A stretch of DNA of 21,407 nt from a virus. Shown in pieces: positions 18,803 to 19,002 of the stretch (position 1 is the stretch's first letter; every line of letters starts with the position of its first letter). The notes beneath the pieces were generated by a model. The model ran no database searches. It was not told the origin of the DNA and was given only the letters and a program-made list of their open reading frames with translations. The position numbers were made by a program, and so were the translations under genes. The stretch lies in the UHGV virus genome UHGV-0286550; one strand, written 5' to 3'.

Positions 18803-19002
18803 ATGACCAGAAGCGCGCTGTAATCGCTTCTGACGACATAAACGCCTCACGGATGACGCATTGCAGCACCGCACCCCATAAATGCCGCCAGAATCGTTTT
18901 TAAAAGGGTTTTAAAAACGGTTTTATTTCCCCTTTTATCCTTTCCCGTTATGGCAGGGTGCTGAACACCCTCCACAGTACCCCGTGTTCCCCTTCCGTCA
19001 TC
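18803..19002. promoter_or_regulatory. Non-coding G-I intergenic gap: hairpin (18808-18832), phased A/T tracts (18895-18945) and second copy of the late-promoter dyad element (18957-18982)
   Basis: Seen in sequence. In Mu the G-I gap carries the late promoter for I and the central strong gyrase site; this gap lies ~18.2 kb from the proposed left end. Confidence 0.5.

Follow-up and report, generated by a model that had tools for sequence, protein, structure and literature searches.

What occupies the 200 bp between genes G and I of a Mu-like Escherichia coli prophage, and what would such an interval do at the middle of the element? The window analysed here, a stretch of 21,407 nucleotides, is the left 21 kb of a transposable prophage with a whole length of ~35.2 kb. 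A gene for a CI-type repressor lies on its minus strand. The window also encodes a transposase (Mu DNA-binding, rve and Mu-C-terminal domains), GemA, a B-like AAA ATPase, a protein of the Mor family, holin, endolysin, and Mu-type portal, F, G and I genes. The transposase domains, B-like ATPase, GemA, Mor, portal, F, G and I together identify the window as the left part of a Mu-like prophage. Near-identical copies were present in 55 of 5426 complete E. coli genomes, EPEC E2348/69 among them, and a DNA-level search against 50,697 phage records returned no match to either the window or the gap. The closest phage I protein is 44% identical to that of the window, and Mu I is 31% identical. The right part of the prophage was taken from a 99.9%-identical genome and joined to the window, which places the ends at ~727 (left) and ~35952 (right). 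The left end (TGTGGGGTAG...) consists of TG, 15 nt and TTCTGGGCG, a sequence that occurs at 744, 818 and 869; these three repeats are probably transposase-binding sites. Positions 1-726 of the window are A/T-rich flanking DNA.

The original prediction described the interval as a 200-bp non-coding gap at the genome centre, and both parts of this description were borne out. Gene G (virion morphogenesis; 18251-18802, plus strand; PF05069, E = 2.4e-26; annotated by PGAP as 'phage virion morphogenesis protein') is the last gene of the lysis/head-early late operon, and the gap measures 200 bp from its end to the first in-frame ATG of I at 19003, or 209 bp if I begins at 19012. No credible open reading frame was found in the gap, and an Rfam search of it returned only a chance snoRNA (E = 0.93). 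Homologous phages might have carried a coding sequence across this interval; instead, no open reading frame is conserved among the relatives, and indels of lengths that are not multiples of three shift the reading frame. A gap of 205-268 bp is again present in more distant relatives in which G adjoins I. The predicted gyrase cut at 18858, described below, sits 18,132 nt from the left end, or 51.5% of the prophage length.

The gap was aligned with MAFFT from nine sources (the window, E2348/69, Intestinirhabdus, Buttiauxella, Trabulsiella, Photorhabdus, Xenorhabdus, Mu and Sp18), and three conserved islands stand out within otherwise diverged DNA: the A/T block CGTTTTTAAAAGGGKTTTAA (window 18895-18917; Mu 17910-17935), the motif GCTGAAC(A/C)CCCTC (window 18960-18972) and the ATGAA(A/G) start of I (window 19012). 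Among seven E. coli variants, positions 18889-18985, to the right of the predicted cut, are invariant, and positions 18806-18890, comprising the cleavage core and its left side, are variable; change among these copies is rapid over the first 85 bp of the gap. We think it likely that the gap is a two-part control region, a gyrase site plus a late promoter, inherited from the common ancestor of Mu-like phages, although the variability of the cleavage core among E. coli copies counts against this explanation. The alignments support reading the gap as the counterpart of the Mu SGS and P_I region in a distant E. coli family of Mu-like prophages, and thus as a known arrangement.

The left edge of the gap carries a perfect 8-bp hairpin (CAGAAGCG/CGCTTCTG; 18808-18832, plus strand) that had been listed among the features marking the interval as special. 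Its arms are exactly as predicted, but they are evidence for nothing: the structure is at chance level (dG -11 kcal/mol, z -1.6; 11 of 200 shuffles fold equally well), and it is not conserved, being lost in the 97%-identical E2348/69 copy, with arms that vary freely among the seven E. coli variants. At the same spot (window 18803-18845), Intestinirhabdus (L004 2305-2335) and Buttiauxella (L005 2300-2335), and likewise L006 (2255-2290), have a canonical post-G terminator, AAACGCGC..loop..GCGCGTTTT, the right arm and T run of which are gone from the whole E. coli family. Because the arms vary freely and these two relatives have a genuine terminator there, the window hairpin is best read as a strain-specific re-pairing of the decayed post-G terminator and is probably not functional. 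A role as terminator or regulatory structure was rejected on the same grounds, together with the lack of a U tract and the silence of the terminator scan.

The reference point for a central gyrase site is phage Mu. Its strong gyrase site (SGS) is the textbook case of DNA recruiting gyrase to do a biological job, and single-molecule and cryo-EM studies use it widely; the source of its strength is still debated. In Mu, supercoiling at the central site extrudes the prophage as a loop and brings the ends together for transpososome assembly. The Mu record (AF083977) places, in and next to a 196-bp G-I gap, the gyrase cut at 17879/80, a hairpin at 17908-53, P_I at 17977-18043 and the start of I at 18056. 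The window gap is collinear with those of Mu and Sp18 (E. coli O157:H7 Sakai), in that the core is followed after ~38 nt by a conserved TTTT(T/C)(T/A)AA..TTTAA block. According to PMC10052514, no heterologous site among those tested other than that of Sp18 (Oram and Pato 2004, as cited there and in PMC3820752) has replaced the Mu SGS, and most candidate gyrase sites tested were unable to substitute for it.

The comparison with the Mu SGS that the original prediction had called for thus gave a collinear alignment, with the best gyrase motif match of the gap at the position homologous to the Mu cut. In both phages the G-I gap lies near the centre (48.7% in Mu and 51.5% in the window prophage), the cut, ~38 nt and then the TTTTTAAA..TTTAA block come in the same order, and the conserved, phased arm is on the I-proximal (right) side. 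The Mu site and the predicted window site differ in that only ~55-60% of aligned bases are shared, the proteins encoded on either side are distantly related, the window hairpin is AU-rich and weaker (-12 versus -20 kcal/mol), and the window motif score is lower. Sp18 is likewise a natural Mu-like central site in a collinear gap, with its best motif match 39 nt upstream of the block; its block, GATTTTCTAACC..TATTTAACGG, is nearer to that of Mu than the window block is, and whereas Sp18 replaced the Mu SGS, the window site is a prediction.

Gyrase preference was scored with a matrix rebuilt on W3110 DNA from the published coordinates and scores of 759 Topo-seq cleavage sites; the coordinates proved sound in that the cut positions carry the G/C signature expected there. 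The final matrix, a symmetric least-squares fit, reached a cross-validated r of 0.90 against the published scores and approximates the published 130-bp motif matrix on a compressed scale (a Mu fragment published at 14.3 scores 10.7). As a positive control, the Mu SGS, which lies outside the training set, ranked first among 36,588 positions in Mu. Other rebuilds were a frequency matrix (r 0.80-0.84), ridge fits (r 0.88-0.89) and a G+C-only flank model (r 0.66). Exact recovery of the published matrix by mixed-strand regression did not converge (training rmse ~0.6), and the fitted weights suggest that the published table scores are not neutral at cut positions 0 and 3. Scoring by identity or G+C class to the published 133-bp gyrase consensus was discarded, as the Mu SGS was not among its top matches.

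Every rebuilt matrix version placed the best match of the gap in the same 130-bp predicted binding window (18796-18925), with cleavage after 18858 on the top strand (score 7.4-9.4) and after 18862 on the bottom strand, leaving a CATT overhang. With the final matrix, itself an approximation at r 0.90, position 18858 scores 8.2 and ranks 17 of 35,226 in the prophage, compared with 10.4 and rank 1 for the Mu site, and falls within the top 0.04% of E. coli DNA outside the training set. It lies 39 nt upstream of the conserved block CGTTTTTAAAAGGGKTTTAA. With one matrix version, the best gap position of each of the nine Mu-like sequences preceded the block by 37-39 nt; with the final matrix this was so in eight, Photorhabdus being shifted by one helical turn, and the spacing persisted in seven of nine sequences when the A/T block was masked. 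In Mu, the best-scoring gap position is the mapped cleavage site. A predicted gyrase site homologous to the Mu SGS is therefore well supported by these alignments and scores, and this portion of the original prediction stands. The word 'strong' does not stand with it and is unproven, the score being below that of Mu and exceeded within gene F.

To the right of the predicted cut, phased A/T tracts had been noted in the gap, and their presence was confirmed with some emphasis: the 64-bp stretch 18874-18937 has the highest 11-bp A/T periodicity of ~35,000 windows across the prophage. The conserved A/T-phased block proper (CAGAATCGTTTTTAAAAGGGTTTTAAAAACGGTTTTATTTCCCCTTTTAT, 18889-18938) is invariant in the seven E. 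coli variants, and Intestinirhabdus, Buttiauxella, Trabulsiella, Photorhabdus, Xenorhabdus, Mu and Sp18 all retain its core. [quoted passage not shown]

The same DNA could be read as a terminator or as upstream promoter DNA, since in both Mu and the window the A/T block forms a hairpin followed by T-rich sequence. The gap would then be a purely transcriptional boundary with no special role for gyrase: the AU-rich inverted repeat at 18892-18922 and the TTTTATTT that follows it would end the lysis/head operon, and the phased A/T DNA would serve the late promoter of I either as curved DNA upstream of it or as a site for nucleoid proteins. A terminator is indeed expected between two late operons, and a second one would be needed in the E. 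coli family, which is without the post-G terminator of its relatives. The window repeat folds with a dG of -12.3 (z -2.3) ahead of its U-rich stretch, the equivalent Mu hairpin (17908-53) is annotated as a TransTermHP terminator in AF083977, and the gyrase score of the gap is not the prophage maximum. We nevertheless regard this explanation as unlikely. The block is conserved as sequence rather than as a hairpin, because Intestinirhabdus, Trabulsiella and Photorhabdus pair only a short TTTAAA palindrome and have no T run, and a terminator scan of the plus strand of the gap called nothing, the A/T hairpin included. The 37-39 nt spacing to the best gyrase position, which holds even with the block masked, would be left unexplained. 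In addition, the Mu DNA equivalent to the window block is, by experiment, the essential right arm of the SGS, according to PMC13284261. Roles of the A/T block in termination or promotion and in gyrase binding may also coexist, a combination that the annotation of Mu itself suggests.

The predicted site in the gap, and not a site elsewhere, remains our preferred candidate for the central gyrase site, even though 16 prophage positions outscore 18858, notably 17576 and 17597 within gene F (17088-18254). If these marked the true central site, with cleavage after 17576 or 17597, the gap site would be a weakened relic, a reading that we hold to be quite improbable. Position 17576 is top in nearly every matrix version (10.9-12.0), with 17597 close behind; 17576 is also central, at 47.8% of the prophage length, and E2348/69, Intestinirhabdus (L004:1066) and Buttiauxella (L005:1066) have one of their top matches at the equivalent place, 1435-1436 nt ahead of the I start. 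However, the matrix is biased towards G+C-rich coding DNA (69% G+C in its consensus), and among windows below 47% G+C no position scores higher than 18858. Conservation within a coding gene needs no further cause, and no phased A/T arm lies alongside. In the Topo-seq paper (Sutormin et al. 2018), in vivo cleavage was seen at only 5 of the 13 E. coli sites with the highest scores, and score and in vivo cleavage were weakly correlated (r 0.15-0.23). The high scores in gene F could mark a further central site for gyrase, or they may simply follow from coding DNA rich in G+C.

That the gap is instead a neutral spacer with chance features, or hides a small gene or RNA, is scarcely credible: the chance-level 8-bp hairpin and the fast-evolving first 85 bp would suit a spacer, but the conservation data already contradict it, with 18889-18985 unchanged in seven variants and a core kept across genera whose G proteins are 46% identical, and a small gene or RNA would be at odds with the lack of an Rfam match or conserved open reading frame and with the frame-shifting indels.

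The right third of the gap carries the second predicted part of the control region, a late promoter for I, which had been proposed from a dyad element and is borne out at the sequence level by a motif that recurs before other late blocks. The element consists of the dyad GGGTGCTGAACACCC (18956-18970) plus CAGTACCC and spans 18956-18982 on the plus strand; an exact second copy of the dyad lies at 10952, with shared flanks as far as CAGTACCC. Within it lies a 15-bp core motif (GTGCTGAACACCCTC, 18958-18972, plus strand), of the form GTGCTGAACACCC(C/T)C, which occurs exactly three times in the 35-kb prophage, each time ahead of a late block. The second copy (10954-10968, plus strand) is upstream of the holin/endolysin block, equivalent to P_lys. 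The third is outside the window, in the 54-bp gap between baseplate gene V and gp46 (prophage ~30907-30960; L047 ~12047-12101). The distance from motif start to start codon is 54 nt for I and 53 nt for gp46.

As to the conservation of the dyad itself, the original prediction needs amending. The dyad is present, but what the relatives conserve upstream of I is GCTGAAC(A/C)CCCTC, along with the A/T block at 18895-18917, and the left dyad half GGGTG is conserved within the E. coli family only. The late motif of the relatives is itself a dyad of another kind, GCTGA-N6-TCAGC (~2425-2445 in L004, L005 and L008; window equivalent 18956-18975). The right half of that dyad is degenerate in the window family, which has the small dyad GGGTG-N5-CACCC instead, a replacement that suggests drift of the activator's site.

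The candidate activator is the product of a gene located just ahead of the first late-motif copy, a Mor/C-family gene (10144-10611, plus strand; PF08765, E = 1.9e-6, 28.3 bits against a cut-off of 24.9) whose product has weak local similarity to Mu C and Mor. Since the 15-bp motif to which the dyad belongs stands before three blocks of late genes, it is probably the site of this activator. The position of the gene directly upstream of the lysis promoter is shared with Mu. Pfam searches from GemA to the lysis promoter (10144-10926) detected a single Mor/C-family gene, and the next open reading frame, of 95 amino acids, had no family match. Mu, by comparison, has separate Mor and C genes, so a single activator may run both middle and late transcription in the window phage.

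A sigma-70 scan of the gap found no consensus promoter, as expected of an activator-dependent one. Alignment to Mu P_I and the spacing of Mu late promoters suggest such a promoter, with a weak -10 (GTGTTC, ~18984-18989) and a transcription start at ~18995-19001, all on the plus strand; Photorhabdus has GATAAT at the position of this putative -10. The predicted promoter, like Mu P_I (Margolin, Rao and Howe 1989, PMID 2522923, via AF083977), lies immediately upstream of I, and, as in the Mu late promoters generally, a short motif common to several of them stands ~35-45 nt before the start and a sigma-70 consensus -35 is absent. Four Mu late promoters share CATAACCCC at this distance. The window motif aligns with this CATAACCCC/TTAT-N6-ATAA box of Mu C but is unrelated to it in sequence, and we infer that the promoter acts in the manner of a Mu late promoter with a specificity of its own. 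The arrangements also differ at the third copy, which precedes gp46 in the window prophage and is inside N, upstream of P, in Mu. Reading TGAAC..CGT as an ECF-sigma-type promoter was considered and dropped, as the spacing and the downstream element are not common to the three copies.

The start of gene I had been called ambiguous, with translation either from the ATG at 19003 or from further downstream, and the PGAP annotation and homologue alignment resolve it in favour of the downstream option. Gene I (head protease/scaffold; PF10123, E = 9e-98) most likely extends from 19012 to 20127 on the plus strand. The start at 19012 (MKMNIAAL) is that of PGAP and aligns with the ATGAA(A/G) start in all relatives and in Mu, and strain Z1324 carries an in-frame 3-nt insertion directly after this ATG. 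The upstream ATG and the two codons that follow it (ATGCCGCGC, 19003-19011, plus strand) are in frame with I in the window, where translation from 19003 would give MPRMKMN, and in L004 and L005. The upstream ATG of Trabulsiella, Photorhabdus, Xenorhabdus, Mu and Sp18 is in another frame than I and opens a mini-ORF of 3-6 codons whose TGA overlaps the I start codon (ATGA). All enterobacterial Mu-like phages examined have an ATG 8-17 nt ahead of the I start (window 19003-19014; Mu 18039-18058; L057 2015-2028; L006/L007 2490-2503).

The original prediction also held that no Shine-Dalgarno sequence precedes 19003; direct inspection agreed and found none before 19012 either. Among the enterobacterial Mu-like phages examined, a clear Shine-Dalgarno sequence at I was seen only in Mu. 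From the predicted transcription start, the leader of the window phage would measure ~11-17 nt and lack a Shine-Dalgarno sequence, compared with ~25 nt for Mu P_I, so the near-leaderless mRNA of the original prediction may yet prove right. The ATG at 19003 could extend the N-terminus or serve to load ribosomes, and the conserved upstream ATG may more generally help ribosomes to load onto a short late leader.

Taken as a two-part control region, the gap would work as follows. Its left two-thirds (~18796-18940) would bind host gyrase, which would cut after 18858/18862, with the phased A/T right arm (18889-18938) wrapped around a GyrA C-terminal domain. Because the predicted site lies halfway along the 35-kb prophage, processive supercoiling by gyrase bound to it would extrude the prophage as a loop until its ends meet for transpososome assembly, as in Mu. 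In the right third (18956 to ~19001), the late promoter of I, the Mor/C-family activator (10144-10611) would bind GTGCTGAACACCCTC near -40, and transcription would begin ~11-17 nt before the start codon at 19012. From the features described above (homology, position, motif scores, conservation and the repeated motif) we infer that gyrase cleaves here and thereby affects transposition, that the activator binds, and where the late transcript begins.

A more tentative extension, which we consider possible but doubtful, is that the block CGTTTTTAAAAGGGKTTTAA with a cut ~38 nt to its left is a signature of the central site throughout the family, and that gene I is translated from a short mRNA without a Shine-Dalgarno sequence by way of the conserved upstream AUG. 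If true, the CGTTTTTAAAAGGGKTTTAA signature would predict central gyrase sites in Mu-like prophages of Enterobacterales as far apart as Escherichia and Photorhabdus, and would pin down the smallest right-arm element that makes a gyrase site 'strong'. This prophage family, distant from Mu yet natural in E. coli, keeps the position and the distance from cut to block, its right arm is phased even more strongly, and its core drifts; the combination of a kept arm and a drifting cleavage core therefore provides a comparative test of whether the right arm decides the strength of a gyrase site. Since E2348/69, a well-studied strain, carries the prophage, Topo-seq and induction work are directly feasible. 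For annotation, the gain is that the start of I is fixed and the late-promoter motif of this phage group is identified.

We note finally that at a position where Mu has no methylase, among the packaging genes, the window encodes an N6/N4 DNA methyltransferase (PF01555; 13124-13864) that overlaps the next long open reading frame (13809-15506).
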